From Blasia pusilla (Eukaryota): DNA of 64,000 nt. Location of the stretch: positions 38,254,001-38,318,000 of the forward strand of contig CM114271.1 of NCBI GenBank assembly GCA_050084515.1. Direction: 5' to 3'. The translations under genes were made by a program, and so were the position numbers. The notes below the pieces were generated by a model that was not told the DNA's origin, did not search any database, and worked only from the letters and a program-made list of their open reading frames with translations. Below are positions 8,271 to 64,000 of this stretch, piece by piece. Positions within the stretch are counted from its first letter, which is position 1; the number at the start of each line of letters is the position of its first letter.

Positions 8271-8669
8271 GATGTAGATGGGTTGAGTCGTAACCCATTC
8301 CCGAGTCAGCAAGATGCGACTGGAGCTCGATGGCATGGAGAGAGTGATGAGGAGTCGGTGCGAGGATGGCACACGTCAGCCTATTTAGGCATGTTGGCTA
8401 TGGAGAGCCAGAGTGTGGAGACTTCGATGGCGAGGTCTAGTGGAGAGTCCTTGGATCCCGAGACCAGTGAGGACATGGCAAGTGGCCGAGATATTCATGA
8501 TGATGGAGTAGTCTTGGAGTACCTTCGTACTGGCAGCGTTGCGAGCACGATGGATGCTAGAGAGCGGGATCGGATCCTACAGCGGGCCAAACGGTTCCGT
8601 TGGGAGGGGACACATGTTTTGAGGGTTTGGGAGGATGGTAGAGTACTCGTAGTGCCGCATCCTTTGTAG

Positions 8670-9931: not shown

Positions 9932-10100
9932 AGTAGGTAGTTCTACATTCCGACTTGTGTCTGTGACATGGATGAGAAGAAGGCGACTAACATGGGGCCA
10001 CATGAGCACCCGGCCTTCTTGCTCTTAGCGTCCGAGAGATGTATGTCATGGTAGGTAGGGATAGATGTAAGTTCCTTAATATTGAGGAACTTACTATTTC

Positions 10101-10422
10101 GGCTCCAAATGAGCCGAAACGAAGGGGAAACGTGCTTTCTCAGGTTTCCCGGGGCCTCAACAGGTCATCCGCGACCTACTGAGCGTGTCCTCCACTACTC
10201 ACGAAGGCGCTCTATTAGATCTCACCGATCTATCCTAAAAGACGTGACAGCTGTCGTGCACATACATATCGCTACACAACATACATCGCTGTCACCGAAC
10301 ACACACACAAACACGCATGATCCCATGCTAACTCATGGCATCCAAAAAACGGGAAAAGAAGTACCAAAATATCTCCAATCGCCCCCCTAGTTGGTGGTTA
10401 GGTCCCTCTAACTCCAGATAGC
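10101..10422 (-). other. Inverted segment in the 3' end of element 1 (PPT + B1 + first 149 bp of A2), flanked by 26-bp palindromes
   Basis: Its reverse complement is colinear with about 63116-63436 of element 2. Palindrome TAAGTTCCTCAATATTGAGGAACTTA at 10427-10452 and a 1-mismatch copy at 10068-10093. Confidence 0.9.
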
Positions 10423-10437
10423 AATATAAGTTCCTCA

Positions 10438-10931
10438 ATATTGAGGAACTTACTATTTTAGGTAAGTACCATTTTCAGTATATGATCGACTTTCTATTTT
10501 TGGTAAGTGGCCCTTGACCTCCTACATCAGGTCAAGAGCCAAGGAGGTGACTTGGGAGAATAGGTTACCATGGAGAGAGCTTGGGAGAGGGGAGGGGTAT
10601 ACCTCAAGGAGAGAGAGCTTGAGAGCTCATTCTCTCTTTGTTGAACCTCTTGGCATGAGGCGGCGGAGCTATGGTCCCTTGCCTTGTGAGTTGTAACCCG
10701 AGCCTCTCATTAGGAGAGTGGGTTTGGTTTGACATGAGAGAGAGTGCACACCTTGGAGAGTTATGGTGTGAGATGGTGTAGAGAGAGATTGGATCTTACT
10801 TTGATTGGAGATATTTTGGTACTTCTTGTCTCGTTGTTTGGATGCCATGAGTTAGCATGGGATCATGCGTGTTTGTGTGTGTGTTTGGTGACAGCGATGT
10901 ATGTTGTGTAGCGATGTGTATACGCATGACA
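10438..10931 (+). repeat. Remainder of A2 (10438-10802) and terminal B2 (10803-10931) of element 1
   Basis: A2 part matches about 2337-2702. B2 GATTGGAGATA...GCATGACA matches inverted B1 (10252-10380). Confidence 0.9.
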
Positions 10932-13870
10932 CATGTCTCACGAGCTCATCTGCACTCCATGCAACAACACTCGTCCCCAACAACGATAAAGAAAACTCTA
11001 CACCATGGGAAGAGACACCCACCTTGGCATGTGTCTCTGTGGGACTATCCGCTATGGGAATGTCCTCCACATGTATGCTCCTCTCCCTGAACCCTCTTGA
11101 GCAACTAACACCACCTGTGAATGCTGCCACCGTGGTCACCGTATCCTCACGTGGTTGACCACCACTGCCCCCTACAAACTGCACCGGTAGATCCCTCACC
11201 CGTCCATCACCTAATCGCCACCCTGACCGATAAGAAATATTCTCCTCCCAAAAATCCAGAATGAACCAAGGGGATACAACACCGTACTCCTTACCAACAC
11301 ATCATATGACTCTGTCAATGTTGTAATCGCCCGATTGCGCACCATGCCACCGTTGCACTATCCGTCTCATGCTCTAGCTGGAGTCTAACCACCAACTCCT
11401 GTCGAGTCATGTAGTGTGTGGGTGATATGCCCCCAATAGAAGTATGTATCTGAAAGGGAAAATGCTCTATGTTGCCTTTCCGTAACCCCAACGCCAACAC
11501 GCCGCCTTCCCTAACATCAAGGGCTGCGCTCTTGAATCAAGTAGGACGCAGTGCGGGTGGTACACCGTACCGGTGGGACTAACCAAGCGAAACAATCCAG
11601 CTTGGTAATCCAAAAACACCACACCTGGTGTGATCATGGCTTGCTTTAGCAATAGCATATCTACCAACTTTTCCGCCACAGCATGCCATGACTGAGTGGG
11701 GGACATCCCGAGCACCTGCTCCGAGGGTAGGTCACCACTTCCTCAACTACCTCTTAGCAAGAGGCAATCACCTCTCCACGCTCACACAACATGGCGGCTA
11801 GTCAAAAAACCTCCTCTAGTTTGACTCCCAACGTCACCAACTCCATGACAGAAAAAAACAGAGTATGGCTCATCCTAGTGGCCACCTCCAACAACGTGGT
11901 AGACATTGGCTCTACCTGAGCCGGCATAGAAGTCGTCTCTCCAACTCCTCGTGGCGTTGATGCACTTGCCTCATCCATGGGCACTACTGGTTTCCGAGGT
12001 ACCATCGATGGTGTATGCAATACCTCCGACAAGGTGAACGACTAGGGAATCCTAGCCTGCCGCCCATCGTCCCCTCTTGTGGATCAATCTCAACCCCACT
12101 TGTCGATGGCTCGGTTACTCTCGCAGCATCTCGAGTCACCACCGGAGCAACCTCAACCTGAGCTGCACTACACAGAAATCCCATACCAGAAAAATCCTCA
12201 ACAGTATTGTGGTAAGATGTGGAGGCTGGCACCACACTAGCTACTCTCAGCTTCGTGCTTGACCTTAGTTGTATCATCGTCATGACAGCAATCCTCTGCT
12301 CCAACTGATCGATGCGAGTAAGGAGCGCTCCATCGGGTGCACGTCCTCCATCTCCTATGACTGGTGATGGAACTCTACCACCAAGATCATCCACTACTCG
12401 ATCTCCACCAACTCTCTCGCCCCCAAGTCCTCTACCTACCTCTAGACGTACATCGCGGCAAAGCATCTATCCCTAGTGTGACCATATCGATGACATTGAT
12501 CACATTGCATCTATGGTAGGGCCATCCTAGATGGCTCCTGAGCAATCGCAGGCGGCCTCAACCCTCTACCATGTTGTGGGTAGTCCCTCTGCCTATGTGG
12601 CCCACCACACGTCCAACAAGCCCACCCTCATCCCTATTGGGTAGCATATGTCGGTACGGGCCGGTGCCTCATCGGCTCACGATAACCCCCTTGCTCTTTG
12701 GGCCCACCGGCCCGCTCCCATGGTCCTCCGATGGAGGACTTCATGGAGTTCCCTCGATACCTCACGCCACTCCATGTCACTCCACTGCCACTGCTCGTAC
12801 TACCCCGTTCTTATGAACCGTGGAAGAACGCCGTGGTGACAACCCTGTCTCACCCCGCTCAAGCGCTCAACTCACCAAGAGTCTCCCACACTCCTCACTA
12901 GCTCACCTACGCTAATGGTAGCCCCATGATGACATACTCGGCCTCACGCACACTCACCACTCGGGCTCACCTTGAGCCTCTCGACTAACTCACCTAAGTC
13001 ACAAACATACTCTCGGATCATACACACGACCCCTACTCGGCAACCGCCGTATAGCCATAAACATGCTACACATACATGGAAACTACACTCGTCACCATCG
13101 CTACACCCATCTAGCACCAACAACTACTCAATACCCATCACTCTCAATGACACAAGATAAGTGCAGGAAAAGGGACTCGAATGGGTAACCTGAACACGAC
13201 TCCCAATCTACTATACGTCAACACTAACTCCTCCATGTCATGCAGCAACCTTCGCGGCACACACTCTCCTCGACCAATATGTCAAACCTCTTCTCAACAG
13301 ATGCGGACGACCCATGTGTCTCTAGCACTACTCGCGCGAACCATCTCTAACTAGGCAACAAATGCCGATCGGCAAAACCCACTCTCTAAATTCCCACTAC
13401 TCTGAGAAAATCGCAACTCCCCCCAACCATGTAGTTCTCCAATGAACGAATACTCTGTTTCGCCCTACCATGTACAATGTCTAACTGCATCTGCTCCCAC
13501 CATATAATCCCGTACTAACTGAGTAGTTGCTGAATCACCACGTCTGGACCCAACCATGTCACCTGACCGCAACTGCGTATTGCCTCTATCCCTTCTGCCA
13601 CCTCCCGGACCGCGGATCTTCTTCCTCCCAAACACCATGGCACCTGGTTGCACTCTTCCCTAACACCGTTCTCTTCCAATCTTCACCTGGCCACTTCTAG
13701 CTCTTGTGGCACGCCGCCCTATGTGGCCAGCCCCACAACCTCGGAGCTGTGTTGCATGCTCTCCCCACTACTCAGCCTTTTCTTCCTCTTCTACCCCTTA
13801 GGACCGCAGCTCTTGCGTGAGCGCGCAAACCTATGCGCCTTGCCCCTAGCCCATGCGCGGCTCCCTGTGC
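10932..13870 (-). mobile_element. Element 3: older, diverged relative of the same gypsy family (leader, partial gag, protease); 5' boundary uncertain
   Basis: VLLDSRAQPLMLGK protease, AQVEVAPVVTRDAA and LPVQFVG...IHVEDIP are homologous to element 1. GTGTTCAGGTTACCCATTC (about 13179-13197, minus) is shared with the element 2 leader (about 54316-54334). Confidence 0.82.
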
Positions 13871-14599
13871 AAGGACCTCCGTGCCAAGGTCCGAGGAGTT
13901 TTTTTATTTTTCTCAGACAATATCCGGGTAGTCTTAAAGTAAGTCAGCATTTGAAAGTTTGAGGTTGGTTGTGGCCAGTAAAAATGAAAATGAGGGTGAA
14001 AAACTGAGTTTTTTTCTGCACTCAGTCAAAATCCGAATTTTGATTATTTCTTCGGATGATTTTCCAACTATCCAAAAAGTTCTTCGGCTAAGTTCTAACT
14101 GATTTCAATAGAATCGGTCAATTTTTTTGGGTCTCTTTCTGTTTTCTCCATTCATTTCTTCTTTAGGGCTTGGTTTATATCTGATTTCTTAACTCCTTCC
14201 AAGTTTGGGAGGTTGGGGGGCAGATTATAGAAACAAACATAACACTCCTCTCTTCTTGCATCCAAACAATTGTGCAAAGATATATTTAAAACTAAAATTC
14301 ACATTTACAAAGGAGATCCTTCGCAAGAGTTGAACCTGGCCATGCCTCCCAACCAGTTAGGACCCAAGGATTTTGCCCCTTAGAATACTTGGAGATTTAA
14401 AGCTCCAAAATTTTCTGAAGGGGCTCTAAATCTAGACAAGAATGTAAACCTCATTTTAGGAAGACAAGTCAATAGAAGTTGCAACGCCTTCAACTTCTAC
14501 TTGAGGAGAGAGATATCTATTTGGGTTAGCATACAGGTCTCTGAAGCTGGCAGAAGTTTTCCACAAAACTATCCTCATAGTCAATAGTAGGGCATTCTA

Positions 14600-16620
14600 A
14601 AGCAATTTTGAGAACATCATCTACAGCAATTTTGAGAACACCCTAGTCTATTCCTACAATTACTCTTTATCATGTTCTGAATTGAGAATGCTCTCTCACA
14701 AACTGCAATGCTCGCACATTGAACCCTCGCAACACTAGCCAACACCAACAAGCTTGCAAACTTGCATTGTAAAGATTGACTCCAACTCACCATTGCCCAC
14801 AGATCCCCGAAATTATGATCTTTCCACTCACTTATCGCCATCAATTTGAAGGATTGGAATTCTTGCTTGACATTAACAGAATTAATGATAAAACGTTGCA
14901 AATGCCCCTTCATTGGTAACTTAGATCCAAAGTGTGCACACAACTCTTCTATATCCTTACATCCCCAACTTAGGATCTTAGTTGTCTAGAAGGCATGTGC
15001 AAGGGGTTCAGGATTTTCATTGCACCAATAGGATTATTGTCTGTGAATTGATCTTGCAAAGCTAGACAAACACTATCAGCATGACTCTCCTAAAACAATA
15101 GAGCAGCTTCTAAATCCTTGCATGTGCGATCTCTAATCATGTCTATACTATGGAACTTCCTCCCTCTAATTTCAGATTATAAGTCTGATAGAATGTGCTA
15201 ACCTCTAATCTTTGAAAAATTAGATACATTCAAGTCATGAGTCTCCATCATGAAATTCATAGTAATAACAACAGTCTCAAAGCTAACAATGTTGCCAATT
15301 GAACTCACATCAATAAATTTTTACTGAAATATCTTGCTTAAGTTAGCCAACATAAAAAGAATATCAGCCAAGAAGTATAATTGATAGATTATACTGAACA
15401 ATCTTAACTTGTTATACAAGCTTACATCATTCCCATCATCTTCTGAAGGGGAAAATGTCCCTAAAGCAAATTAAAACAGATTCTGGTGAATCACATATAA
15501 TGGATACAACTTGCCATCGTGACAACCTTCGAATCTTATGATATCTTTTCATAACTCTTTGGGAGTCATTCATCTTCTCTTGTAGAGAAACTAGAACAGA
15601 TTTTCGTTTGGATGACTTCTAGAAATATCCTGGTACAACATTAAGAATAGAATCTACTTCTATGGAAATGGATTTGCAATTACTAGCTTTAGCAGTTATG
15701 AGAGTTGCAAGGTTTGTCCTATGAGCAACACAATGCACTGAAAGAATGAACAAATTTACCTTTTGCTTCAGTTGTGAAGCCACCCCATTATGGCTCCCTA
15801 CCATTGAGGAGGTTCCATCCGACCTGAAACCTACCATTCTAGAAAAGTCTAACCCCCCATCTTTAATTAGCTCTAACAAACTATAAGTGATAACATTAGA
15901 ATACATAGACTCGCAACGAAGCAATCCTAAAAAACAACACTCAACTTGACCATCTTCTATGAAGGTTGCAAAGACTACCAAATGACCTCTTACAGATATT
16001 TCAGTAGATTCATCAATCATAATTCCAAAGAATGGTGATGCCTGAACCCTAGCAAGGGTCCTTTTGAGCAGAACTTGACTTATACAAAAACACATTTCAC
16101 TTCAGTTAAGATCTTTACCATTTCACTTTAGTAATATGTGCATTCACGAAAAGCATCAACTTACAAACACCTGTGAACTCTGAGAAAGGCATGACCTCCT
16201 TGCACACCTAAATAAAGTGAGCAAAACTATCTCACATGTTCGATTGGATGTGGCAATGGTCTTGGCCATGGATTTTTTTCCTCCATTAGTTGCCCAAGCT
16301 AACTTGATATGCATGATCAATGAAGCCAGACACTTTACAATTTATGGCACCCTCCCTGGCAAAGACATTCTTGCCTTTACCTTTTCTACACATATTACAA
16401 TTAATTCTTCCAATTGAAGAATCTAACATGATCCAATCATACATGATGTACTAAACATCCCTCCACGCTTCTCAATTTCGCAACTATGGATAAATTACTT
16501 CCTAACAAACTCTCCTCTTCCTTCTCATCAGATGATCCTGAAAGAACTATGATCTCTGGTTGTGCCTTGGGGACCTCCTTGCACAATAAGTCATTCATAG
16601 TTCTATGTCTTTTGGCCATT
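14600..16620 (-). pseudogene. Degenerate hAT transposase (ZNF862-like type)
   Basis: FFGIMIDESTEIS (first D), GFRSDGTSSMVG (second D), VHCVAHRTNLA (CxxH), SIAVCERAFSIQNMIKSNCRNRL (E and dimerisation domain). Multiple stops. Confidence 0.88.
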
Positions 16621-21198: not shown

Positions 21199-22225
21199 GG
21201 AAATCCTTGTACCATTCTTTACCCAAACAAATAGAAAATAGATATAAAACTATAAAATACAATGAATTGATACATGGACAATATGGTAAAGCATTCCATC
21301 TAAGAATTAAGGACGCCGAGAAATTATGGGAAAATTCACAAGATTATCGGTAGGATTGTGGTAAATAGAAAGCATTCCAATTTTTTTTTAAATTGGAAAT
21401 CCTTGTACCATTCTTTTACCCAAACAAATATAAAACAGATATAAAACTATAAAATACATTTAGTGGATAAGTGGACGATATGGTAAGGATTCCATCTTAG
21501 AATTAAGGACCCCGAGAAATTATGGGAAAATTCACAAGAGTGGCGGTAGGATCGTGGTAAATAGAAAACATTCCATCTTGCACACACATTACACTCAAAA
21601 AAATTAAATTTAAAAAAGTTTGGAAATCCTTGTACCATTCTTTTACCCAAAGAAATAGAAAACAGATGTAAAGCCGAAAGTATTCCACTCTTTCTTTTAC
21701 CAATTCTTTTCTGTGTTGTTGTTAGTTAGCGGAAAATAGAAACAAATAGAAAACATGTGGAAAACTATAAAAAAAAAAAGTGAATGGATAAGTGGATAAT
21801 ATGGTAAGCATTCCATCTTAGAATTAAGTACACCGAGAAATTATTGGTAAATTCACAAGACTGTTGGTAGGATCATGATAAATAGAAAGCATTCCATCTT
21901 CCATACACATTATACTCAAAAAAAATAAAATTTTCTATAAAATTGGAAATCCTTGTACCATTCTTTTACCCAAAGTTTTATACTCGAAGAAAATCATAAT
22001 TTATTATACGATTGGAAGTGGGAAGTTGTTGTGCGTAGCCGAAGGAAAGTATTCCACTATTTCTTTTACCAATTTTTTTCTATGTTGTTGTTAGTGAGCG
22101 GAAAATAGAAACAAATAGAAAACATGTGGAAAACTATAAAATAAAGTGAATGGATAAGGGGACAATGTGGTAAGCATTCCATCTCAGAATTAAGGACGCC
22201 GAGAAATTATGAGAAAATTCCCCAC
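21199..22225. repeat. AT-rich tandem array, about 4 copies of a 200-320 bp unit
   Basis: GGAAATCCTTGTACCATTCTTT at 21199, 21395, 21622 and 21945, each followed by CATTCCATCT.AGAATTAAG...CCGAGAAATTAT. Confidence 0.92.
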
Positions 22226-33790: not shown

Positions 33791-34042
<252 letters not shown>

Positions 34043-35973
34043 TGGATCTTGTAAAAGTTAGTAGTAAAAGGCACGGTAGTTGGGGGAGAAAATCATAAGT
34101 ACCGCACCTAGTGAGGACTTCATATGGACTCTATGGCTATAGATCACACAGTGCAAAGGCATCTTAAAAAAACCTGTCATGTGCAATAGTGACGGAACTA
34201 TAATGAACGGCAAAGAATAATAAAAAACTGACGAGAGTGAAGATTCGAGCATACCTCAACAGCGGAAAGTATTCCAGATGCACCTTTGTGATTAAAATGA
34301 TTCAAAGCTACTTTGCTCTTATCAAGTTTGCCACCACGTTCACCTTCATTTGAGAGCCACCAAATCAAGAGAATCATTCTAGAAAAAGACATACGTAATC
34401 TTCTCCCGCCTTGCCTCCAACACGAATGGTATTGCTACGATCCCTGCATATTTGAGCAAACTTAGAGATGGAAATTATTCCAGATGAACCTCCGCGATTG
34501 AGATGATTTAGATTCGCCTTTTCGTAATCCAGATTGCCTCTGAACGCCACCGGGTTCGCCTTTCTTTCAGAGCCGCCAAAACGTGCGAATCACACTTGAA
34601 AAGCACCGTAGAAAAATAGTGACCTAATCTTCTCCCGCCCTACCTCTAACATGAACGATAGACCTTGCATCTCTGCCCGATCTCCCTCGGAAGATATTCC
34701 AACAAGGTGAAGAGAAATACAGAGTGAAGGTAGCGGTTCAGGTGCCCCGAGTCTCCCTTACAGAATCACGCTCACTCCCTGCTCGCCAATTGCAGAATTG
34801 GGGCATCAATCTCGAAACTCAAGAAGGTCATTCAAAGCTAACCGACGGTTGGATCTAAACAAGCCCAAATCTTCACCGTTCATCCTTATGACCCTACTAT
34901 TCGTCACACAAAGAAGGTGGGGATCGACTTTGGAGGCAGCTCATTGGTGGCTGCTAGGATGGAGCCTCCATCTAAAAATTGGAGCGTGGATAAATGCCAA
35001 AGGAAGCCCAGAAATCCCCACACTTCTTTCGCCAAACCGCGCACGCCATTCACATGCCCATGGGTGGGATGGTTACATGGGTGATGGGTGGGATGGGTAC
35101 ATGGGTGCGAGCCGACCCGCCGCGGATATCCAACCCACATGGCGGATATATAGGGCTCGGCCGGAACTACTCTTCTGGCCTCTTTGGGGAGTGGGTGATA
35201 GCGGGTCAGGGGTGGGATGACGGGTGGGTAGGGGGCGTAGGGGGGGTTCCAGAGGTTTTGGAGTTCCAGAACCTAGAGCCAATAAAGGCTCTGAGTTCTG
35301 AGACTACAGATAGCCTCCCAACTTTCGGTACGCATCCCTATGGACATGACCCATCCCTTACTCCTTCTTCCCCAACTTCCTTGGAACCCCTTGTACGTAG
35401 CTATACATGGTGACTTATTAATGCACTCCTTCCTCCCTTCATCCTGGGTGCGGCGCGGTTGCGCGACCTGCGACCTTGCCACTTTGACTCCTTGACCGTG
35501 GCTATACCAAACAGCCTCCTCTATACGACTGATCACGTATGTGTGCCCTAACTCAAGCCTAACCTAGTGAGCTACGACTTAACACTAGTCTCTAGCCGAC
35601 TTTATTTGAAAACCCCCCGGGGGCTGCAAGGCCTATTCAACACTCTTTTTCTCCTTATCCCGACACGCACTTCTCACCTGACAGAAACACAATCGAGAAC
35701 ATTCGCCGCTACATTCTATACTACCCTCTGCTGTTGCCCTCTGTCAACCCGCACCAATATGATCTGAGAAAAATGGGTAGCGCTTCCGCGCACAACCTTA
35801 CGAATATAAAAATGACAAACAAACGCCACACACGCGTCTCCAGGGGCTCCCCACTTAGGCAACTCACTTGCCTACCTACAACCAACGAACTCCTTGCCCC
35901 CTCGCATCTTTCTCATGTAAAATTAGAGTAATAAAACTCCACTCATGAATCTACATCGGCATATCGAACCACA

Positions 35974-50000: not shown

Positions 50001-52606
50001 CTAGTGTTTAGCTTGTGCCATGTACGAGAGTGAAAAAAAATTTTATGTTGTACACAAATTCAAAAAAAAAAATCTTGTTGCGTAGTTGCCATATATTAAG
50101 TAAACATGTGTTTGCAAATCAAGTAGCCACTCTCTAATAATAATATAGATTGGATGTGGAAATAGAAGAATGCAAAACATCTCCCATCTAACACCATAGA
50201 TTGAAAGGAATCTCCCCCCCCCACCAACACCTCTATTCCTGTTGTGTAAATAACCCGTAATTCATGTCCTTGCTTTTGAGCCCCAAAAGCCCCTTTCTAA
50301 TGTAGAAACTAGTGTTCAACCTGTGCCATGCACGAGAGTGAAAAACTAACCATGTTGTACAAAAATTCCAAAAAAATGTTCTTGCTGCCTAGTTGCCGCA
50401 TCGCGAGCAGACATGTGTTTGCAAATCAAGAAGGTACTCTCCAATAATAATATAGACTAGTAAGATGCATGTGCAATGCACAAGTGCATTAGGGAACAAT
50501 ACGCATGGAAGAGGGAATAATACACAAACGTGGGTTTGACTTTTTTTGAATATTCTTATTTTAGTCAAGTATTTCTTTATACACCATATTTTGTGTGTAG
50601 TCACCTTCCTCATTTGAGTGTTCATCGCTTCCTATGGTAACGTGGATGGAACTTCTCTTCCCTACTCTAGATAATGCTACATACAATTGACCATGAGAAA
50701 ATACGAGAGTAGGCAAGTAAATACCAACCTTTTGCAAAGTTTGACCTTGAGACTTATTAGTAGTCATAGCAAAAGTTGGGCGAATAGGGAATTGAAACCT
50801 ACGTAAATCAAATGCCAAACCAGAATCGGATGCAATCAATGGATACGTGGAATAAAAATTCGATCTCCAACATTTTTTCCAGTGATGATTTCTGCATCTA
50901 TGCAATGTTGCATGAATCCACGAATCACCAATCTCGTCCTGTTTGCTTGTCCATATGATACGTTCATCTTTCGTAAGAGCATGACTGTTGCACCAATTTT
51001 TAAACACAAACGATGCGGAGGTAGTCTACAAGGCAAGCATGTGTTCAAAAATTTAGTTGGATAGATAGAACTCATCCTCTGATTTGGAATAGAGTCGACA
51101 CTGTGGTAAATATGCTCATGTACAAAAGATATAATAAATCAGTGAGAAAAAGTAATAGTAGTACAAAAAATTCCCAAAAGAAGGTCCCAAGCGGAAAATA
51201 TATGCACATTAGAAGGATTACCTGTCTTGGTAACCGAGACATAACGTTTGTATAAATGTCATCAACATCTTTATTTCTTGGAGTCAAAATAGTTGTATCT
51301 CTCAAGAAACCAATGTCATGGAAGTGGCTAGTAGATATGCTATAGATCAATTCAATAAGATTGCATATCTTATAACTGTTAGTAATAATTTCATATGGTA
51401 ATCGTATAAAGTCTTCTCCCAAATGAGGGTGCAAAGGTACATGACCCTCTCCCACTTCCAATAACCAATCAGCAAAAGCTTGTTGTTCAACATGCAAATG
51501 ACCTTCCAAACATTAAACTCGCATGTTTGTTGTCAACTTCATGAACTTTACATAAGACCAAAGAGATGGTCTCTTTATAGTGGCTTGTATGATTTGGGGT
51601 CAATCCCCATGATGAACAACAGGCAACACTTGACGTAAGTCACCACCAAATATTATAAGTTTTCTGCCAAATTGTAGTTATCGTAGATCATCTGAAACCA
51701 CTCCCATAATATCTTGTATAAGTACGATTAACTGCCTCAAATGCATGACGATGAGTTATAGGTGCTTCATCCCATGTAATGAGTATTGCGTCCCGGATTA
51801 AGCGTGCTCCATCACTTTCAACTCATAAACTATAAATGATAGAAGGAAGAAAATTAGAATTGTAACACTTGAACTAATTAAATTTTATGTGTTCATAGAA
51901 TTGCATGTAAGGTAGCTAATGACACTTACTTGCATATAGAACTCTCATGAAGATTGATGGGGATCTTGAAATGCGAATGTGCAGTTGGTCCTCCATCTAA
52001 TAATATAGCAGCTATTCCGGATGATGCTACAACCAATGTTATACCTCTTGCACTCCTTATGCTTGCAAGGAGAAGATTATCTAAAAATGTCTTTCCTGTT
52101 CCCCCCGGACCATCAATGAATTTTTTTTTTGAAGATGGTGGAGCATTCATGCATATTTGATCCAGCTTCTCATGTATAGCATCCCAAATAATACCTTGTC
52201 CTTCATTCAAACATGCTTCTCCCAATTGCACTTGCTCAAATAATTCTTCTATATCATATGATAACTCTTGTTCCTCCAAATATGAATGTGAATGAAAACT
52301 TTGGAAATTAGCTTGGGGCATGTTAGTAAAGTCAGATAGTCTCTTTCCTTGATCTTATAAATAATAATGAACTTCCAACAATGCATTGTTAGTGACAACA
52401 TCATCAACATGAAGATTAGGAATTCTTGTTTTTTGCAATGAAAGAGTTTCAAAAAAATTCCAAATTATCGTTAGTTTGTTGAATGCACAAAAGAAGAGAT
52501 ATACTATTAGGAAAAAAATGAATGTTGTACAGAGTGGCACTAATGAATTCTCACATGTCGTCGTTCATATAAGAGATCTTCTAATAGTGGAAGCAAGAAT
52601 TGACTC
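50001..52606 (-). mobile_element. Helitron 3' part: degenerate intron-containing PIF1-family helicase and two tandem 3' termini
   Basis: FIDGPGGTGKTF, VASSGIAAILLDGGPTAHSHFKIP, WDEAP, GGDLRQVLPVV, QFPIRPTFAMTTNKSQGQTL..VFSHGQLYVALSRV. Hairpin (GTGCATGGCAC, with a 1-mismatch variant) plus CTAG|T ends at 50309 and 50001. Confidence 0.93.
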
Positions 52607-53120
52607 TGTCACGACTAGTAGGATAGATTGGTGGGATCTAGCAGAGCGTCTGCACGAATAGTGGAGGACAGGCCCAAGATGTCGAGGACGACCTGTTGAG
52701 GCCAGGGGAAACCTGAGAGAGCAAGTTTCCCCTTCGTTTCGGCTCATTTGGAGCCATATAGAGAAACTTACTATTTCGGATAAGTTTCCATGTTGGGGAT
52801 AGTTGACTTTCCACTTTGGGAAGTGGCACTTGACCCGCTATAGTAGATCAAGAGCCAAGGAGGTGACCTGCGAGCATAGGTTACCATTGAGAGGGCTTGG
52901 GAGAGGGAAGGGGGAAAACCTCCAAGAGAGAGAGCTTGAGAGCCCATTCTCTCTTTGTTGAACCTCTTAGCATAAGGCGGCGGAGCTATGGTCCCTTGCC
53001 TTATGAGTGTAACCCAAGCCTCTCATTAGGAGAGTGGGTTTGGTTTGACATGAGAGAGAGTGCACACCTTTGAGAGCTATGGTGTGAGATGGTGTAGAGA
53101 GAGATTGGATCTTTCTTTTA
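52607..53120 (+). repeat. Terminal repeat A1 of element 2
   Basis: Matches A2 at 63288-63800. Followed by ACAATGAGAGATTGAG, a degenerate self-priming PBS. Confidence 0.93.
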
Positions 53121-54640
53121 CAATGAGAGATTGAGAGATCTTCATGGGGGAGCTCCTAGGTCACTCGCTGTTTTTGCAGGTTGGGGACCGTGTACTCCGT
53201 TCAGCGGCTCATGGGAGTGCTCACCGGAGCAAGGGCTACTTTGATTGTTCTTTGCATTTGCCGATTTTTCGTGTGGAAGAGTGGCGCGCGGAAGCGCTGC
53301 CCAATTTCAGATAGGGATTGATTATGGGGGCGGGTCGCCCCCTGCTTCCGCTCTTGGGAGCACCATGTAGCTTTCTGATTTGTATTTTTACAGGTTTTAC
53401 ATTTTTTTGGAGAAATCAGCGCGGAAGCGCTGCCAAATTTTGTGTAGGAGAAAGAGACATTTGGCTTTACAACAATCCCTGTCAGTTTTTACTTGAATGT
53501 TCAATTCTAAATATATTTTGACATTGTTGTAGATCGCAAAGTTGTGCATGCTGTGCAACAAACAATGTGCAATTTGGAGTTTTGAGCAAAAAGTTATGGT
53601 CAATCTTGAAAAATTGCCATTACTAGGCGATTTTTAGGGTTAAATTGTTCAAACCCTAAACCAACCGCCACACCGGCAGTGGCTGTCGCCGTCATAGTCA
53701 CCGGTCAATGGTCAACCATCATTGTCAATGGTTCACCATCCATTGTCCACCCTTTGGTTGCCATTGCCGCCATTACGGAATGGAGGGTCTTCCACGACGT
53801 TCGTTGATTCTCTAACTTGCGTCGCCACCACGTACTTTGTTTAGGCCGCCACCGTCATCGCAATTTTGTCATCAACTAGTGATGGAAGATGACCTACGGT
53901 TATGGTGTTTGAGTTTGATTTCATGCTGCTATGTTATGATTGGTAGCCGCTCGATGAAGATCGAGTACCGTGCCGTGACGCCTGTAGCCGCAACGCCGCC
54001 GATTGCTGCGCTGTGCCGCTCGTGGCCCAACCACACTGTCTCGATCGTGGAACCGCTCCTTCACTAAGGAGCAGAGTGTGTGAATTTTTGATTGAGGAGG
54101 GTATGCTGCCGAGTGCCGCTCCCCATTCCCGAGTGCCGTGTTGTTTGTAGCCGTTCCGTGCCCCCAGTGCCGCACAGGACCGCTCGACCTACACCGCACA
54201 TCGAGGAGGTTGAGTAGCGTCAGTACGAGAGGAGTACGACTTGCTAATTGGAGGAGTTCTCTTCACGACCAAGTTGGGGTCGAGATTTGCAGTTGCTGAG
54301 GAGCGACATCGATATGTGTTCAGGTTACCCATTCTGGTCCTTTACACTGCACGTGTGAGGGATTCTGGGATTTGGGTAGTTTATTTGGGGATATTGGGTT
54401 GTGTGGATGTTGAGAGCATCATTCATGTATGTGGTTTAGGGGACATAGACCTGTGTGAGATGTCCGAAGTTGAGGGTAGGTTATCGATGAGATGATAGCC
54501 TCGTCGATTTGCCGCACCATGCCGCGTGTTGTCGCACGTTACACGTCTCGGGGAGGGAGAGTGTAGATTGAGTGCCGCATGTTTGGGATAAGTGATTGAG
54601 GGATAACTCATGAGGTTGAGAGTGATCGGGTGAGAGGGGC

Positions 54641-57600
54641 ATGAGGGTCATCACGGCGTTCGTTCGGGACTTTGAGAGGCGAGGTGGTGAACCGGAGAGT
54701 AGCTCTAGAGGTTTTACGCGGAGTGGCGCGAGGTTCCAAGGGTCTCCACGTGAGGGACCACCTCGACCTCCTTCTGTGTCATCGTCAGACAAGGGGGAGG
54801 GTGTAGAGGAGTTTGTGAGCACATTACCACACATTGTGAGTGGTCATACCAGTTGGGCATACGAGATGGACGACCGGGGTAGAGGACCGCGTACGTTTTC
54901 AGGTACAGTAGGCACGATTGAGTTGCACAATTTCATAGCATAGTTTAGGAGTTGGTGCGACTCCCAGCGGGCCAAGAACTCTAGAGAGTTCAACCCGTTT
55001 ACAGCATGGAACCGTATGTTCCAGCATTTAGAGGGGGCACCCATGGACGATTACCATGAGTTCTCTCAGAGATATGCACTTGAGATCGAGGCTTGGAGGC
55101 TCTACTATGACCCACATTATGTGTCATGGACGGATCCGTTCCCAGATGAGGAGGAGGAGTCATGAGAGGCTACTTCCTCTTCCACTAGTGACATTTTAGG
55201 AGGGTTCACTCGCACTAGAGCAGTTGCACCGTCTAGTCGGGTTCGTCCTAGATTCAACCCTGTGGTTGAGTTCTTTGCTGAGTTGAGGTCGAGCTATCAG
55301 CGGGTACGGACGGAGAAGTTGCGGAGCATCCACCACTTCCAGAGGTGCCATGGTGAGAGTTTGCGTGAGGCTTACACTCGCTTGCGCCAATTGATCAACG
55401 TCACTCAAGGCGTGAGAGAGGCTCAGGCTATCCAATCATGGTACGCGATGCTGGACCGGACCATACGGACACGAGTGCGGGAGGGGGTGCTTCTTATGAA
55501 CACCTCCCCTACGTTGAGAGATGTTTTTAGGACCGCCGAGAACATTGAGCACAACATGGCGGAGGAGAGCGTAGCCACCATGGGTTCTAGGCGAGAGCAG
55601 CCACGATTGGTTACACCACATGTGCAACAACGTGGACTCCGAGATAGGTCGATTGTGGCACCACGAGCTCAGGGAGGATACCACGAGGCCGTGCCACAGA
55701 GACGTGCGAGCTCACCAGCAACCGCCTACTATTACTTGTTGGTCATGTGATGGAGCCCATCATCAACGCGATTGCACTTATCAGGGTCATGGATGTGTGC
55801 CTTAACATGGAGGACGAGATGGTGCTACGCCAGGAGGTTATCAGTGTAACTATTGTTAGAGGTATGGTCATACACGCGCCAGGTGTTTCAATTTACATCT
55901 TGAGTTACGTCCGGACCGAGGGCCAGAGAGGGCACCAGAGTGAGTAGCCGGTCTAGGTGGGCTAGAGATCGTGTACCAGGTGGTCCCGTAGGGGGACGAG
56001 GAGCTGGAGTTGCTCGACAGGGTGGTGGAGCTGCCCGTGGAGGAGGTAGAATACCACCATCTAGACGCGCCGAGGGAGACGCCGGACGTGAGGCTGGGAT
56101 GGCTGCTCAGATACAACAACTACAGGAGCAGATTACCGCTATGGCATTGAGGTTACCCGATGCCGGATCCATGGCATCGACATCATATGGAGCAGCCAGA
56201 GATATGGAGGATCCTGGTTGGATGTGCGGGCTTGCCCAGATGGAGGCCGCCGCAGTTGTGACGTGTGGAGCAACCGGAGAGTTGGATCCACAACGAGGGG
56301 AAGCCAAAAAATAGACTAGGCTTCCTCAGTCTTTCACATTGTCCGAAGCGATGAGGACCCCATCTGTCACAACCCTCATAACCAAACAACACCAAATAGG
56401 CGCCAAGCGAAACATCAAAACTCAGAGGAACTCACGTTGCGAGGTTTGCGCTTTGGAGAGGCGTTTGGATAAGTCTCTTGGAAAAGTCTAAGAGACAAAA
56501 CGCGGAATAGAGTTGTGTGTTTCATACGTTAGTGGTCGCGACCAAGAAATCTAGAACAAACGCGAGCCAAGACTTGAGATGAGTTGAGTCTTGGGAGGTT
56601 GGTTGCCAAAGAGGTGAGAACCAGTTTGGAACACGACTAGCGTTTGGGAGAATCTGATTGTGTGTAGGACCATAACGTTGAGCTCCAAGATGCGTTTGGG
56701 ACAAATAAGGGTGCGTTGGAAAGCTGATCTTAAGACACTTCTAATGCACTAAAGATATCAGAAAACACATAAGTACAGGCTAAATATTGGCCAAAAACGA
56801 TTGAGACATCAACTGGATTGAGGGCCAATTGGAGAGGCCCGTGTGTCTTTCCCTAAATGTAGGGGGCCCCCGGAGATCCCTAGAAGTACTAGTAAGGTAG
56901 GAGTCTCTCCGAGATGTCTCGGGAAATGAATCCCCACTTTGGGCGCCAAACGGCATTTCAGAGGCACGGGATGGAACGGGAGTTTGGCGTGGGAACTCAA
57001 AACCCAAACCTGATCCAAGGGAGTGGACTTTGTATGCCACATTTGGATCCCAACCCGAGATTCACTTTGTGTGAGTCTTGATGAGGAACTCATTGGATGT
57101 CCATCGGACAGTTGGAACCGCTAGGCGCGAAACGCCGTTTCAGGTTCCTGAACCGACTAGAAAGTCTGCCCCAAGTCTTTCGAGATTTTCCCGTGTTGTA
57201 AACCGCGAAACTAGGAAGGTTCAGCTTGATGAGAGTCCGAGACGAGAACTCGGAAAGTAATCCCGCTGATTGATCCAAGACCCGACTAACCAAAGTGCGT
57301 GTTTGGATGCAGATCAGCGTTGAGAGCGTGACCTACTGAACGCACGCTTCCGCAACAAACAAGATTAACGTTCAAGGAGAGTAGGCGTACGACACCATCG
57401 ATGGGTCCTCATCAAAGTTCCTAGAGAGTTGGTGATGTTGTTGGTGTGCAAGCATGAAGGGCGATGGGAGAAGAGAGTGCGACGACTCCTATTGTTGATG
57501 CTCAGGAGAGGCATGTGTCGAGCACGTTGTTGGGGGCGGCCACCACTGTGTATTGCACTTATTTCTTTTCTGCTTCCGATGTTATGACATTGGGGGGTAC

Positions 57601-58260
57601 GCCCGCCAAGGCTTTTCGGCTGACCGCTTCACTATATGAGCGCGGAGTTGGAGTTCTTGCATCACGTTTAGAGGTGATTGCAGAGGAGGTGATGGTCCTA
57701 CCCTTGGAGCGGATGCTCGGACCGTCCACGTCAGATTCATAGTAGGCTGCGGCTGCTAGGATGGTGGAGATGCCCGCTAGACCCGCGATAGAGCGTGCCA
57801 TGGCTTCTCTTGGTGCTGTGTTGCTGGATAACTGAGGAGAGGTCTTCCAGTTGGTGAGTCCCGGAGGTAGAGCTTTTAGTCCGCAGCGCATCTTGTTGGA
57901 TTCAATAGCGCAACCCTTGATGTTGGGGAAAGCGTCATTAAGAGGATTGGGCTTGACGAGAGCCAATGTGGAGTGTTGTCCATTCCGAATACAGACATTC
58001 TTGGATGGAGCGAGTACCACACAGTATATCACCTGACAAGAGGTCGTGGTGAGGATTCGCCCAAGACATCCTACAGATGAGTCTGTGGTGCGAGCCAAGG
58101 CAATAGTGATTGATGTAGAGTCCAACGACGTCTTGGTTGGTGGAGCAATATTATACCTAATGGGGTTTTCCTTGGATTACTGGGAGGAGTCAACGTCCTA
58201 CAGACCAAGATGGTAGTCAAGTGATGGGTGCCTTAGCTCATTACCCGTTCGATTCACAGG
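54641..58260 (+). pseudogene. gag and protease of element 2, interrupted by a solo LTR
   Basis: Colinear with element 1 2719-5220. Knuckles CWSCDGAHHQRDC and CNYC*RYGHTRARC (55845-55886); protease RILLDSIAQ. Confidence 0.85.
56365..57394. mobile_element. 1030-bp solo LTR (or non-coding LTR-type insertion) nested in element 2
   Basis: TGTCAC...CGACA ends, perfect 5-bp TSD CCATC (56360-56364 / 57395-57399), and absent at the homologous site of element 1 (about 4390). Confidence 0.9.
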
Positions 58261-58612
58261 TGCAGTGATTGAGCGACGGCCAGGAGAGGTGGCAAGCTTA
58301 ACAACATTTAGCAGTGTCATCACTTGGCCTAGTGATTTGATTGAGGGACATGTCCATGCAGAGGATACTCCCGTTCCTGACATTTCTATGGATAGGAGTG
58401 TTATGGTAGCCGCATCATTCCGTGGAGGAGAGGTGCCGTTGTGGGGCTCGATTGAGGAGCTTCGACGATTGGCAGATGAGCACGTGCATACCACGTGGAG
58501 CGAGGCGTTTGCATCGGAGCGTGACCGGTCTGAGGAACCCGAGGTAGTAGGGAGTGCTATGATGACACCCTTGGATACCACATCCATTGTGTGGTGTGTC
58601 TCGGAGGAGGGT

Positions 58613-59530
58613 ATTTGAGTGTTAGATCTCTTTGGAGGGATTAGCACCGGGTTAGCTGCTGTTTTGCAGACATGAGTGCGAGTGCAGCAGTACTTGTATG
58701 TGGAGAGTGATGATGTTGGGAAGCGCGTCTCACTACTACATATGGCATAGTTATGCCTACATTTTCCCGACTTATTTTCTGCGTCCGCGGTACAAGGGTA
58801 TTAGAGTTCCCTACCGAGGGATATTTCGTTGCTGGGGACGCAGGACTTAGAGCGGGTAGGGACCATTGATTTGGTTATTGCCGATTGGCCATGTCAGGGC
58901 CAATCAAGTGCTGGACGAGGCAGTGGGTTGGCTGACACTCGGTCCAGGTTGTTTTGGGAGACGTTGAGGATCTTACGGCAGTTGCAAGAGCACCAATCTC
59001 ATTCTCCAGCCTACATTCTGGAGAATGTGCCGATCTTAGGAGACTCCAGGTCACGGATGGTGACGAGTGCTCATCAGGTGCGTGCCTGGATTGGCCCAGC
59101 TGTGTCCTTGGATGTGGCAAGTGTAGGTTCTAGAGCCCATCGCCCGCGTATATGGTGGACCAACTTGGTGCCGCATGCGGTGTTACGGAGGGTGTATGCG
59201 AGAGTGGAGCACCCCTCCCATTTGTTAGTGGATTCCATTCTAGACCCAGGTCGTTGATCACAGGAAATGAGGGACGATGATCGACCATCGTTGACTATGG
59301 TCAACATGGTAGGCAGGCCGTGGGCAGCCTTGCCCACGTTTGTGAGTTTTCCCACTTCCTATGCATACAAGGAGGCCGGTCCTTGCTTGGTTTGGGATGA
59401 CCACGTTCAGTGGTTGGTGGAGCCCAACGCCGAAGAGAGAGAGCGAGCGATGGGATTTCCCACAGGAGTGACGGAAATATTGTCAGTTTCAAAGGCATCA
59501 CGACGCCATGTCTTGGGTCAGGGATGGACC
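58613..59530 (+). pseudogene. DNMT3-like methyltransferase domain, element 2
   Basis: VLDLFGGISTG, IDLVIADWPCQGQS, YILENV, AHRPRIWWTNL, ERERAMGFP, RRHVLGQ. Confidence 0.92.
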
Positions 59531-59901
59531 TGAACTGCTTGACATGGATTCTCAGCTTGGAAGTGGCTGAGCAGCGCCATATGAGATCGCGACAGATCAC
59601 AGCGGTTGCGTTGGTGAGACCTATGCCCACCGAGACGGTGGAGGCAGTGGCTAGGGGCGAGACCCTAGGAGATCTACACACCAGGGGAGATCAGGAGAGA
59701 CACCCTTGGACTTCTTGAGATGTTTTGCAGGTACGCCAGGAGATGATAGCCACAGCATCGAGCGTGGTTCCAGGCACTGCACGTGGAGGAGATCAGAGTT
59801 TGCAATTGGTTGTAGGAGAGCGGCCGAGTGTTGTTGTTCGAGACGGGGTTGCACCATAGCAACCACCGATATCCGCGCCGGAGAGTCCTACCGTAGTCAC
59901 G

Positions 59902-62900
59902 ATGGAGACTTGGGAGCCATATATGGGCCCTAAGTTGACAAGAGGAGAGTGGCGCCGGATACATCAGTTCCTCAGGAGTTATAGGAGCTGCTTTGCGTTT
60001 AGCATGGAGGATTTGGATACTCTTAAGGGACCGGATATCCGCATTGAGTTGTCGAGTGATACGCCAATCTTCCGACGACGCTACAGGTACAGTGATATGG
60101 AGAGGGCTCTGATTGAGAGTAGGAGCCATGATTTGGTCGGAGCAGGATTAGTGGAGATGTCACATGGGGAGTATGCATCTGCCGCTATCATGCCCGCCAA
60201 GAAGGATGTGCATGGCAACTGGACGGATAGGCGGATGTGTGGGGATTATCGACCTATCAATCGGTAGACAAAGTCTTATAGGTATGCCATGCCCACTCCT
60301 GAGGATATCTTTGATGCGATTGGTCACGCAAAGATCTTCAGTTCATTGGATTTGTGAGCCGGATACCATCAACTGCCTATCAGATTGGAGGACAGGTAGA
60401 AGACGGCATTTTGGGGCATCAATCCTCACGGAAAGGATTGCTTGTACCAGTGGCGATTCTTACCATTTGGGTTAAAGAACGCCCCGGCTGAGTTTCAGAG
60501 GGTCATGGATAGGATCTTGGCTGATCAAGATTTTACTAGGTGTTATATTGATGGCATCGTAGTCTTTAGCGCCAAAGTTGAGGAGCATGAGGGACATCAA
60601 GAGGAGGTGTTTTGATGCTTGCAATTACATGGGCTGAAGCTACATCCAGGCAAGTGCAAGTTCTTCTACGACCAGATTGAGTACTTGGGTCATACGATAT
60701 ACCCAGGGGGCCTTGGTGTTCAGCAGACCAAGATAGAGGCTATCTCACTCATTCCACGCCCTACAGATGTGAGCCGTGTTCGCGCATTCATGTGATTGGC
60801 AAACTTCTATTGGCGGTACGTCAAGGAATTCAATTCGATTGTGAAGCCGCTAACATTGCTGACCAATGTGGATCACGAGTGGCACTGGGGGGATGAGCAG
60901 ATGAGCATTTCACTTGCTCAAGGACAGGTTGACGTCCGCGCCCATCTTAAGGAGACCGATCAGGGGGCGTCCTTTCCAGTTGCACACAGATTGGAGCATG
61001 TTGGGGCTTGGAGTGGTGCTCACCCAGCATCATGATGAGGGTAGAGAGTTCGTGATGGCTTACGCTAGCCGCTCAAACAATGCTGCAGAGGCGAAGTACA
61101 ACTCGTATGAGGGTGAGTGCTTGGGTGCAGTGTGGGCTGTCGCACATTTCAGGTGTTACTTATTCGGAAACCCCTTTACCATCATCATTGATCATCAACC
61201 ACTGAAGAGGTTGATGGAGTCCGAAAAGCTTACAGGGAAGCTTGCGAGATGGGCTCTATTGTTGCAAGAGTATATTTTCATGTGGTACATAGACCTGGGA
61301 CGCTCAACCAGGATGCATATGGGTTGAGTCGTAACCCATGCCGAGTCAACAAGATGCAACAGGATCTCGATGGCATGGAGAGAGTGATGAGGAGTCAGTG
61401 CCAGGATGGCACGCGTCAACCTATTTAGGCATGTTGGCTATGAAGAGCCAAAGTGTGGAAACTTCCATGGCGAGGTCTAGTGGAGAGTCCTTGGATCCCG
61501 AGGCTAGTGAGGAGATGACATGTGGCCAAGATATTCATGATTATGGAGTAGTCTTGGAGTACCTTCGTACTGACAGCGTTGCGAGCACCGTGGGTGCTAG
61601 AGAGTGGGATCGGATCCTACAACGGGCTAGACGGTTCCGTTGGGAGGGGACACATGTTTTGAGGAATTGAGAGGATGGTAGAGTACGCGTAGCGCCGCAT
61701 CCTTCACAGAGAGCACGACTAGTGCAGCATGCCCACAAGGATTTTGGTCACTTTGGGGTGAAAGCGGAGGTACAGCTTGCTCCAGATTCAGTATTGGTGG
61801 CGAGGCATGCAGATTGACGTCTAGCAGTTTGTTGCCAGGTGCATGGTGTGTGATCGAGTTTGAGCATCGTTCAATGCTCCGACTCCACAATTGCATCCAT
61901 TACCGGTCATGGGCTTAGGATATAGATGGAGTTTGGATTTTGCAGGACCTTTGCCTTTGACGGAGCGTCATAGTCATTATGTGTTGATGATGGTCAAGTA
62001 CTTCTCGAAGTGGATCGAGTCGGTTGCATTGCCTGACAAAGCGAGTGAGGGAGTAGCTTATGCCTTCCTTGATAGGGTGCTGAGTCATTATGGTGCAACG
62101 GCTGAGGTGTTGACAGACCAGAGTATCGAGTTTCACGGTGAGTTCCATACCTTGTGTGATCAGGCATTGATCGACCACTGTACAACTTTGCGAGATCATC
62201 CTGAGGCGGATGGATTAGCAGAGAGAGTTGTGCAGACGATGAACAGGGGTTTACGCAAGTATGGCTTGCAGAGAGGTCACCTAAGAGATTGGGACCTCCA
62301 GTTGCCATGGTTGGCGATGGGATACAGATTCAGTAGGCAGGCATCCTTAGCGTCTTTTTCACCGTACTTGCTACTTTATGGCCAAGAGCCAGATTTACCT
62401 GCGGCCATTAGTCGAGATGCTGATGAGGTGCCGGACCTTGATGACCCAGATGTATGGATGCGAGCATGTTCTTAGAGGGCTGAGTTGTTTTGGAGAATGA
62501 TGCCCATGGCGTTCGAGAACTTGGCAATTGTGTAGCATCGGGATACGTTGAGGTATGCGACTATTCGGGATGGTGGTTATCGACCAACTATCTGGAGGTT
62601 TCATCAAGGAGATTATGTCTACTTGCAGCAGACGGCACCGATGACGTTGGATGTGAGTGCAAGGCGCACTATCCTAAGAGTGCGTGATGTTTTGCCATTT
62701 GGTGTTCTCTTGCTGGAGGGACGCGATGGTATGGTATGGAAGGACCATATGTGTAATTGTGCACCATGTCACCTTCCTAACATTAATGGCACAGTAGATC
62801 TGAGCTCAGCAATAGTTCCTGCACGCTTGCGTTGTATGTTGTGTGGTTTTGCTCGTGGTGCGGCCACAATTCTAGTCTGCGATGGATGTTCGAGAGGTTG

Positions 62901-62973
62901 GCATATGGCATGTCTGACGCCACCTCACACTAGGGTTCCTCGAGGACGATGGATGTATCCCAGATATACATAG
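59902..62973 (+). pseudogene. pol: RT, RNase H, integrase and PHD finger of element 2
   Basis: RMCGDYRPIN; YIDG (mutated YIDD); FQLHTDWS..YSYEGECL; WSLDF/VLTDQ/GLAER; PHD at 62833-62970 with last Cys pair mutated to Tyr. Many stops. Confidence 0.95.
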
Positions 62974-63149
62974 AGGAGATACTAGGTAGGTTTTGATTCC
63001 GAATTTTTCTATGACATGGATGACAGGAAGCGACTAACGATGGGGCCACATGAGCACCCGGCCTTTTTGCTCTTAGTGTCCTAGAGATGTATGTCGTGGT
63101 AGGTAGGGATAGATGGCTATCTGGAGTTAGAGGGACCTAACCACCAACT

Positions 63150-63910
63150 AGGAGGGCGATTGGAGATATTTTGATACTTCTCCCTGTGTGTATGGATGCC
63201 ATGAGTTAGCATGGGATCGTCTGTGTTTGTGTGTGTGTTCGATGACAGTGATGTATGTTATATAGCGATGTGTATGCGCACAAAAATTGTCATGATTGTT
63301 AGGATAGATTGGTGGGATCTAGCAGAGTGTCTACACGAGTAGTGGAGGACATGCCCAAGAGGTCGACGATGACTTGTTGAGGCCCCGAGAAACCTGAGAG
63401 AGCAGGTTTCCCCTTCGTTTTGGCTCATTTGGAGCCATATAGAGAAACTTACTATTTCGGATAAGTTTCCATATTGGGGATAGTTGACTTTCTACTTTTG
63501 GAAGTGGCACTTGACCCGCTACAGTAGGTCAAGAGCCAAGGAGGTGACCTGCGAGCATAGGTTACCGTTGAGAGGGCTTGGGAGAGGGAAGGGGGTATAC
63601 CTCCAAGAGAGAGAGCTTGAGAGCTCATTCTCTCTTTGTTGAACCTCTCGGCATAAGGCGGCGGAGTTATGGTCCCTTGCCTTGTGAGTGTAACCCAAGC
63701 CTCTCAATAGGAGAGTGGGTTTGGTTTGACATGAGAGAGAGTGCACACCTTTGAGAGCTATGGTGTGAGATGGTATAGAGAGAAATTGGATCTTATTTTA
63801 TTGGAGATATTTTGGTACTTCTCGCCTCTGTATATGGATGTTATGAGTTAGCATGGGATCGTTTGTGTTTTTGTGTGTGTTCGATGACAACGATGTGTAT
63901 GCGCACAACA
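63150..63910 (+). repeat. 3' end of element 2: PPT-like AGGAGGGC (63150-63157), B1 (63159-63285), 2-nt spacer, A2 (63288-63800), B2 (63800-63910)
   Basis: B1 and B2 both read ATTGGAGATATTTTG.TACTTCTC...GATGTGTATGCGCACAA(C/A)A; A2 matches A1. Confidence 0.93.
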
Positions 63911-64000
63911 ACTCCATAGTGTTGCAGGTTGAGCAGATGTGTTGTAGGCTAGAATAATTGCAAATAAACGGTGCAGTGCAGAACCTATACGGATCATAAA
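63911..64000 (-). mobile_element. Continuation of the Helitron RepHel gene beyond element 2 (runs off the window)
   Basis: Minus frame LHRLFAIILAYNTSAQPATLW resembles the LRxLFxxIL....P..LW segment of Helitron RepHel proteins and joins in frame with 52606. Confidence 0.8.

Follow-up and report, generated by a model that had tools for sequence, protein, structure and literature searches.

The 64,000-nt stretch of Blasia pusilla DNA analysed here (hereafter, the window) carries two copies of a single retroelement, both on the + strand. The younger copy, E1, occupies positions 2188-10931, and the other, E2, extends from 52607 to 63910; the two copies are about 89.5% identical, and stop codons are scattered throughout both. 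Positions 63150-63910 correspond to the block consisting of the polypurine tract (PPT), B1, A2 and B2, which forms the right-hand end of the decayed copy E2 (Table 1). A Pfam scan of stop-to-stop ORFs from both copies revealed reverse transcriptase (RT), RNase H, rve integrase, PHD finger and Dnmt3-like C5 DNA methylase domains. L002, a relative that has undergone less decay, also has a gag of the CCHC type and an integrase H2C2 domain, and the top match for the methylase of L002 among solved structures, in a PDB sequence search, was DNMT3A (E = 4.8e-11). The order of domains in pol (RT, RNase H, integrase), the H2C2+rve integrase and the CCHC gag are those of Ty3/gypsy elements. No tyrosine recombinase (PF00589) was detected by Pfam scans and a PDB sequence search in 29 ORFs of the window or in the ORFs of the metagenome loci considered below. 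This domain content, together with the absence of a tyrosine recombinase, identifies the element, as judged from its sequence, as a Ty3/gypsy-type retrotransposon of the Dnmt3-carrying, PHD-bearing clade.

Table 1. Features of the two retroelement copies in the window. Positions are numbered from the first nucleotide of the window.
Feature	Copy	Position	Strand	Remarks
A1	E1	2188-2702	+	TATA 2497-2500; 16-mer CTCATTCTCTCTTTGT 2527-2542
Self-priming PBS	E1	2703-2718	+	16/16 nt complementary to 2527-2542
C5 DNA methylase (Dnmt3-like, PF00145)	E1	5687-6028		Pfam
RVT_1	E1	7070-7606		Pfam, E = 8.5e-23
RNase H	E1	7607-8669		Pfam
rve integrase	E1	8850-9131		Pfam
PHD finger, C-terminal	E1	9311-9931		Pfam, E = 2.7e-11
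Inverted block	E1	10069-10455	-	contains PPT box, B1, spacer and A2 positions 1-149
A2, positions 1-149	E1	10101-10249	-	part of the inversion
Junction spacer GC	E1	10250-10251	-	part of the inversion
B1	E1	10252-10380	-	part of the inversion
PPT box	E1	10381-10428	-	part of the inversion
A2, position 150 to end	E1	10438-10802	+	97.3% identical to A1
B2	E1	10803-10931	+	ends GACA, then CATG; left flank CGTG 2184-2187
Left target duplication ACTC	E2	52603-52606	+	matches 63911-63914
A1	E2	52607-53119	+	starts TGTCACG; 93.5% identical to A2
PBS-like 16-mer, self-priming, decayed	E2	53120-53135	+	14/16 nt complementary to site in A
Internal region, decayed (many stops)	E2	53136-63149	+	gag, Dnmt3-like DNMT, RT, RNase H, rve, PHD, conserved box before the PPT
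C5 DNA methylase (Dnmt3-like, PF00145)	E2	58805-59257		Pfam
rve integrase	E2	61864-62475		Pfam
Polypurine tract AGGAGGGC	E2	63150-63157	+	adjoins B1; box conserved in relatives
B1	E2	63158-63285	+	
Junction spacer AT	E2	63286-63287	+	CA of CA-NN-TG on the B1 side decayed to AA
A2	E2	63288-63799	+	presumed transcript-start 16-mer 63624-63639
B2	E2	63800-63910	+	17-nt internal deletion; last bases CAACA
Right target duplication ACTC	E2	63911-63914	+	

Both copies are organised in the order A-internal-B-A-B, with TG...CA ends (TGTCAC...ACA) and 4-bp target duplications. The two A repeats of E2 can be compared over 507 nt and the two B repeats, which are 89.7% identical, over 97 nt. The repeats of E1 are more similar to each other, with 97-99% identity for A1 and A2, and 92.9% identity for B1 and B2. 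The joint between A2 and B2 reads CTTT/GATTGG in E1 and TTTT/ATTGG in E2. At all the sites scored, the nucleotide differences among the window repeats separate the two elements, rather than the two positions of a repeat within an element (44:0 in A and 7:0 in B); A1 and A2, like B1 and B2, are therefore remade from a single template in each round of transposition.

In E1, the block at 10101-10428, extending from the PPT box to position 149 of A2, is inverted relative to E2, so the junction of this copy, GACAGCTGTC (10244-10257), is found on the minus strand. All the junction strings quoted in the preliminary description of this DNA are present, but CGACA-GC-TGTCAC was placed at 10244-10257 with no mention of its strand. 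The inversion is flanked by 26-bp palindromes (10069-10094 and 10430-10455; sequence TAAGTTCCT[T/C]AATATTGAGGAACTTA) missing from canonical copies. Its occurrence was checked over positions 1900-11200 in two sets of DNA contigs (X1 and X5) and two raw stranded RNA runs (X22 and X23) with the same species label. An opposite-strand joint connecting 10067 to 10422 was found in 18 contigs of X1 and four contigs of X5, and in 83 RNA reads of X22 and 157 of X23; a joint connecting 10101 to 10438 was found in 42 and 77 RNA reads, and in no contigs. Reads with the first mate on the + strand numbered 33-75 in the two bins spanning the inverted block and fewer than 10 in all other bins, indicating that the sense transcripts of other copies run directly through PPT-B1-A2. 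The direct order was found in most of the DNA contigs and RNA reads, and the inversion is, thus, private to E1 or rare. This inversion converts, in a single step, a PAT-like layout of split direct repeats into a DIRS1-like layout, with terminal repeats and an internal complementary region.

Two stretches of E2, at 53138-54694 and 56365-57390, are missing from E1, and neither matches a Pfam family. Loose ends of RNA reads at 2720 (29 reads, X22) indicate that expressed copies carry a stretch of the 53138-54694 type directly after the PBS, and that E1 is, therefore, a deleted form. E1 is itself inserted within E3, a truncated and more distant relative on the minus strand (1977-2187 and 10932-13900), which terminates in a sequence resembling B (...CACGACA, at about 1990) and has 64% identity to the region preceding the DNMT in E1. 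E3 was too broken for use in the comparisons.

Metagenome contigs were scanned with the RT of E1, yielding 71 loci with 35-85% identity. Self-comparison and reference mapping identified the A-internal-B-A-B layout in three further families, F2, F3 and F4. F2 is represented by five loci with this layout (L003, for which the contig ends after A2, L016, L022, L033 and L040), F3 by L032 (the same locus as L031) and F4 by L026 (the same locus as L028). Chance is excluded as the source of the pattern, because three more families among the 71 loci share it. A Dnmt3-like methyltransferase is present in all four families, and F2, F3 and F4 carry both the DNMT and the PHD finger. A deletion variant (L045), a rearranged copy (L054/L056) and a copy cut by the contig end (L042) were excluded from the census, and the right end of L046/L047, which resembles B-A-B, was too decayed to be counted. 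A long repeat pair at L047 was rejected, as it is the LTR of another element, with a tRNA-type PBS. In F2 (L003, L008, L018 and L022), the end of A contains an inverted copy of the first 8 nt of A (TCATGACA), located 6 nt before the PBS, and CA is also found at the end of the B+A unit itself.

Inserted copies begin at the TG of A and finish at the CA of B, which are separated by 2 nt within the LTR. The constant 2-nt spacer between B1 and A2 expected from the preliminary description was observed at 8/8 junctions, from four families. The sequence of this spacer is GC in E1, L003 and L016, AT in E2, L040 and L026, AC in L022 and GT in L032; a GC spacer makes the CA-NN-TG site a perfect 10-bp palindrome. 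Target duplications of 4 bp could be assessed for five elements, and were perfect in three (E2, L008 and L018) and had a single mismatch in two (L032 and E1, with CGTG/CATG); the left end of L022 was too decayed for inclusion in this count. Copies are not bounded by two complete and identical TG...CA LTRs, as Ty3/gypsy elements are, and the B+A unit is complete only once in each. The duplications of L008 and L018, two independent A-internal-B copies, both read TACA, which could reflect a target preference or chance; there is also a resemblance between the flanks of L008 and the termini of the element itself.

B is immediately preceded by a conserved box, with AGGGGGG(C/T)(G/A) as its last bases, in each of the 13 F2 loci matched, and in E1, E2, L026 and L032. 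The stretch shared with a sister subfamily detected in RNA reads consists of the PPT box only, extending as far as the first bases of B (37 nt, 10379-10415), and is followed in this subfamily by a different B resembling that of F2. There is no tRNA-type PBS after A1 in these elements. Instead, the 16 nt following A1 in E1 are perfectly complementary to a site within A, and the predicted free energy of the duplex is -25.0 kcal/mol, versus -12.4 +/- 2.0 kcal/mol for shuffled sequences, none of which reached the observed value (0/300). The corresponding duplex of L003, in F2, has an energy of -20.1 kcal/mol, also reached by 0/300 shuffles. The A sequence of F2 is unrelated to that of the window family (F1), yet the PBS and its site in A are arranged in the same way: in both families, about 160 nt of A remain downstream from the site, and a TATA is found 22-30 nt upstream from it. 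In L003, L018 and L022, the site in A varies from copy to copy, and the PBS co-varies with it. Such co-variation is expected if the PBS is recopied from the transcript start, as it is in Tf1. Self-priming duplexes were not significant in the old copies E2 (energy reached by 74/300 shuffles) and L032 (230/300). The table of RNA begin and end points contained a small number of weak positions (10187, 10760 and others), none of them at the predicted start, its bins of 310 nt being too coarse for this purpose. The PPT thus adjoins B1 and the PBS adjoins A1, as initially reported, and both are conserved in relatives. Given these positions, reverse transcription should generate a cDNA with an LTR of B+A.

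The inserted order, A-internal-B-A-B, is a circular permutation of this predicted cDNA that begins and finishes at a palindromic CA-NN-TG located within the LTR, and the inserted copies bear out the earlier placement of the TG and CA ends at this internal site. We propose the following route. The transcript would start in A, about 30 nt after the TATA, and its first 16 nt or so would fold back onto the sequence after A1, priming the minus strand as in Tf1, with the polypurine tract before B1 priming the plus strand. The product would be a cDNA with an LTR of B+A at both ends, which would then circularise. The DDE integrase of the element would nick after each CA of one junction, leaving CA-3'OH ends with 2-nt 5' overhangs, and would insert the opened circle. 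A retroviral 3'-processed end is a CA-3'OH with a 2-nt 5' overhang, and the nicked ends would, thus, be the same substrate for the enzyme. A two-LTR circle would give rise to a replication-competent A-internal-B-A-B copy. A one-LTR circle, or the internal cutting of linear cDNA, would instead yield A-internal-B, a form lacking the 3' R region and predicted to be incapable of further replication.

The preliminary description foresaw two alternative products of this route. One of these products, A-internal-B, accounts for nine of the 18 independent right ends (L008, L010, L012, which is the same locus as L037, L014, L018, L021, L023, L024 and L048), with perfect 4-bp duplications in the two copies for which both ends are visible (L008 and L018). 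Such copies could equally well be explained by recombination between B1 and B2. The other product, A-B-A-internal-B, was observed at none of the eight left ends available (E1, E2, L003, L008, L018, L022, L035 and L032). This absence counts against the model, because a symmetric cut of a two-LTR circle predicts both forms equally often; for the five elements of the two-LTR type, the binomial probability of finding no A-B-A-internal-B is about 0.03. Small numbers, a faster collapse of A-B-A to A-internal-B or the loading of integrase on the first-completed LTR are possible sources of this left/right asymmetry.

The results for the expected heterogeneity of the A2/B2 joint were mixed. The window family has a variant differing by 1 nt: a loss of 1 nt exactly at the joint (10803) accounts for 11% (X1) and 20% (X5) of contig depth, and for 11/21 and 9/23 RNA reads. 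By contrast, the joint had a single length in 5/5 F2 copies, a result that counts against the model. The 1-nt variant would be compatible with variable removal of the PPT primer, and could equally be an inherited difference between subfamilies, whereas the single length in F2 is more readily explained by precise joining or templating than by error-prone end joining. Thus, the anatomy, the spacer and the A-internal-B copies are consistent with circle opening, the second predicted product failed to appear, the joint gave a mixed result and the circle itself is a predicted intermediate. We consider the circle-opening model plausible but unproven, with the chances of its being correct evenly balanced. 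A broader proposal can be made: that a whole clade of LTR elements with a DDE integrase, in the streptophyte lineage, replicates only via circular cDNA, with an integrase recognising an internal CA-NN-TG rather than the cDNA tips, two-LTR circles, which are considered dead ends in retroviruses, as the productive intermediate, and DIRS-like repeats acquired convergently, without a tyrosine recombinase. This proposal is tentative, and we rate its prospects at slightly below even.

The same inserted order might be obtained without a ligated circle if, as plus-strand synthesis drew to a close, RT reached the end of A and jumped to the start of B, on the same or a second cDNA, generating a longer-than-unit molecule in which integrase would cut at the first TG and at a later CA. 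The precision of the A2/B2 joint in all five F2 copies is consistent with such a jump, and the one-sidedness of the left ends (0/8 with A-B-A) is more easily accounted for by a directional process than by a symmetric circle. However, two equivalent junctions would still be present in the longer molecule, so a jump alone does not explain the asymmetry, and we know of no precedent in LTR elements; we regard this explanation as unlikely. Templating from RNA is also conceivable, with a transcript reading through B1-A2-B2, B2 and the joint being copied from this RNA, and a linear cDNA already in the inserted order. Transcripts templating B2 directly had been named at the outset as a sign against circle opening. 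RNA reads cross the A2/B2 joint at a depth of 21-23, a result that counts against the circle model and demonstrates the existence of read-through transcripts; the constant length of the joint in F2 also fits such copying. Nevertheless, the element-wise grouping of repeat differences in both A and B implies that B2 is not inherited separately from B1, and the pattern in B argues against its inheritance from read-through transcripts. Furthermore, neither the TG nor the CA end has a primer site next to it; the conserved PPT adjoins the start of B and the conserved PBS adjoins the end of A. The copying of B2 from read-through RNA therefore appears improbable.

Two further explanations seem to us to have very little chance of being correct. 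Insertion of the circular cDNA by a tyrosine recombinase, possibly one provided in trans, as in elements of the DIRS/PAT type, would leave no target duplication, and is difficult to reconcile with the 4-bp duplications, the TG...CA ends, the H2C2+rve integrase and the lack of a recombinase domain in any ORF scanned. The attraction of this explanation lies in the layout, as split direct repeats of the A1-B1A2-B2 type define PAT-like and Ngaro elements, and the available text of the Dnmt3 paper (PMC5890265) describes the layout as DIRS-like; we consider it highly improbable all the same. The copies might also be ordinary LTR elements that were rearranged after insertion, mis-assembled or mis-delimited, and the private inversion of E1 shows that rearrangements do occur. 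This is hard to accept for an identical layout with a 2-nt junction in four families and at nine independent right ends, with the duplications flanking the TG and CA ends and B never preceding A at any of the eight left ends. The direct B1-A2 order is, moreover, found in many contigs and in 83-157 RNA reads per run, and we give rearrangement or misassembly hardly any credence as the source of the layout.

TOC1-type elements, which belong to the DIRS order, have split direct repeats like those of PAT-like and Ngaro elements. The accounts available for the PAT-like and Ngaro groups define them by split direct repeats (A1-internal-B1A2-B2), with both termini side by side in the internal B1A2, as in the elements studied here. 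The difference, in the same accounts, concerns the enzyme: PAT-like and Ngaro elements use a tyrosine recombinase, whereas the elements described here have a DDE integrase, 4-bp duplications and TG...CA ends. In Tf1/sushi elements, the transcript start is complementary to the sequence immediately following the 5' repeat, with no PBS of the tRNA type. The pairing in the elements of the window and their relatives extends over about 16-18 nt, and involves a predicted transcript start. The members of the bacterial IS3 family encode a DDE enzyme that cleaves abutted inverted ends, a few bases apart, in a circular intermediate. They differ from the elements considered here in being DNA transposons, with a circle made by their own transposase, whereas the circle proposed here is deduced from the inserted order.

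Foamy-virus and HIV-1 integrases cleave the palindromic junction of two-LTR circles, according to the portions available of the corresponding reports (PMC1180852, PMC1905944, PMC4372172). The likeness lies in the action of a retroviral-type integrase on a circle, at a palindrome formed where two ends abut. In these viruses, as described in those portions, the cut is made at the LTR-LTR joint and restores the normal linear order. By contrast, the elements studied here would be cut within each LTR, and their inserted copies retain the LTR-LTR joint (A/B).

The closest published match is KnitGypsy-Dnmt3 of Klebsormidium nitens, for which the legend to Fig. 4c of de Mendoza 2018 (PMC5890265) reports a DIRS repeat structure (A-coding-B-A-B) together with domains typical of Gypsy elements. 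A gypsy-type pol with a Dnmt3 domain and the A-coding-B-A-B layout are both found here, the comparison being one of descriptions. The preliminary description made no mention of this earlier publication of the layout. The text of de Mendoza 2018 (PMC5890265), as far as it was available, contains no analysis of the PBS, PPT, ends or duplications, and proposes no mechanism. A 2026 preprint names a streptophyte Gypsy-DNMT3 only in passing. Our literature searches retrieved no earlier statement of an LTR element with a DDE integrase inserting as a circular permutation opened inside the LTR. The anatomy is, thus, real, conserved and, for the layout, partly published, and the mechanism that we infer from it is sound but unproven.

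LTR elements and retroviruses are conventionally described as integrating linear cDNA, with integrase acting at its tips and circles arising as by-products. If circle opening is the correct interpretation, a lineage reaching its inserted order only by permutation of the cDNA would constitute a natural counter-example to this account. It would also explain the DIRS-like appearance of a gypsy element, noted in print in 2018 without explanation. Programs that detect LTR elements by searching for a pair of identical LTRs, one on each flank, will place the boundaries of these elements and of their A-internal-B derivatives incorrectly or overlook them altogether.

The window contains several other features. 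An ORF on the minus strand (15619-16101) has a weak match to DUF4371 (E = 1.2e-5, below the curated cut-off) and, on the basis of this match, is probably a fragment of a DNA transposon. Two long microsatellites of the (GA)n/(CT)n type, at 1516-1597 and 33940-34050, are in opposite orientations. The region at 21225-22220 contains a family of direct repeats of 110-160 nt, irregularly spaced at intervals of 196-366 nt.
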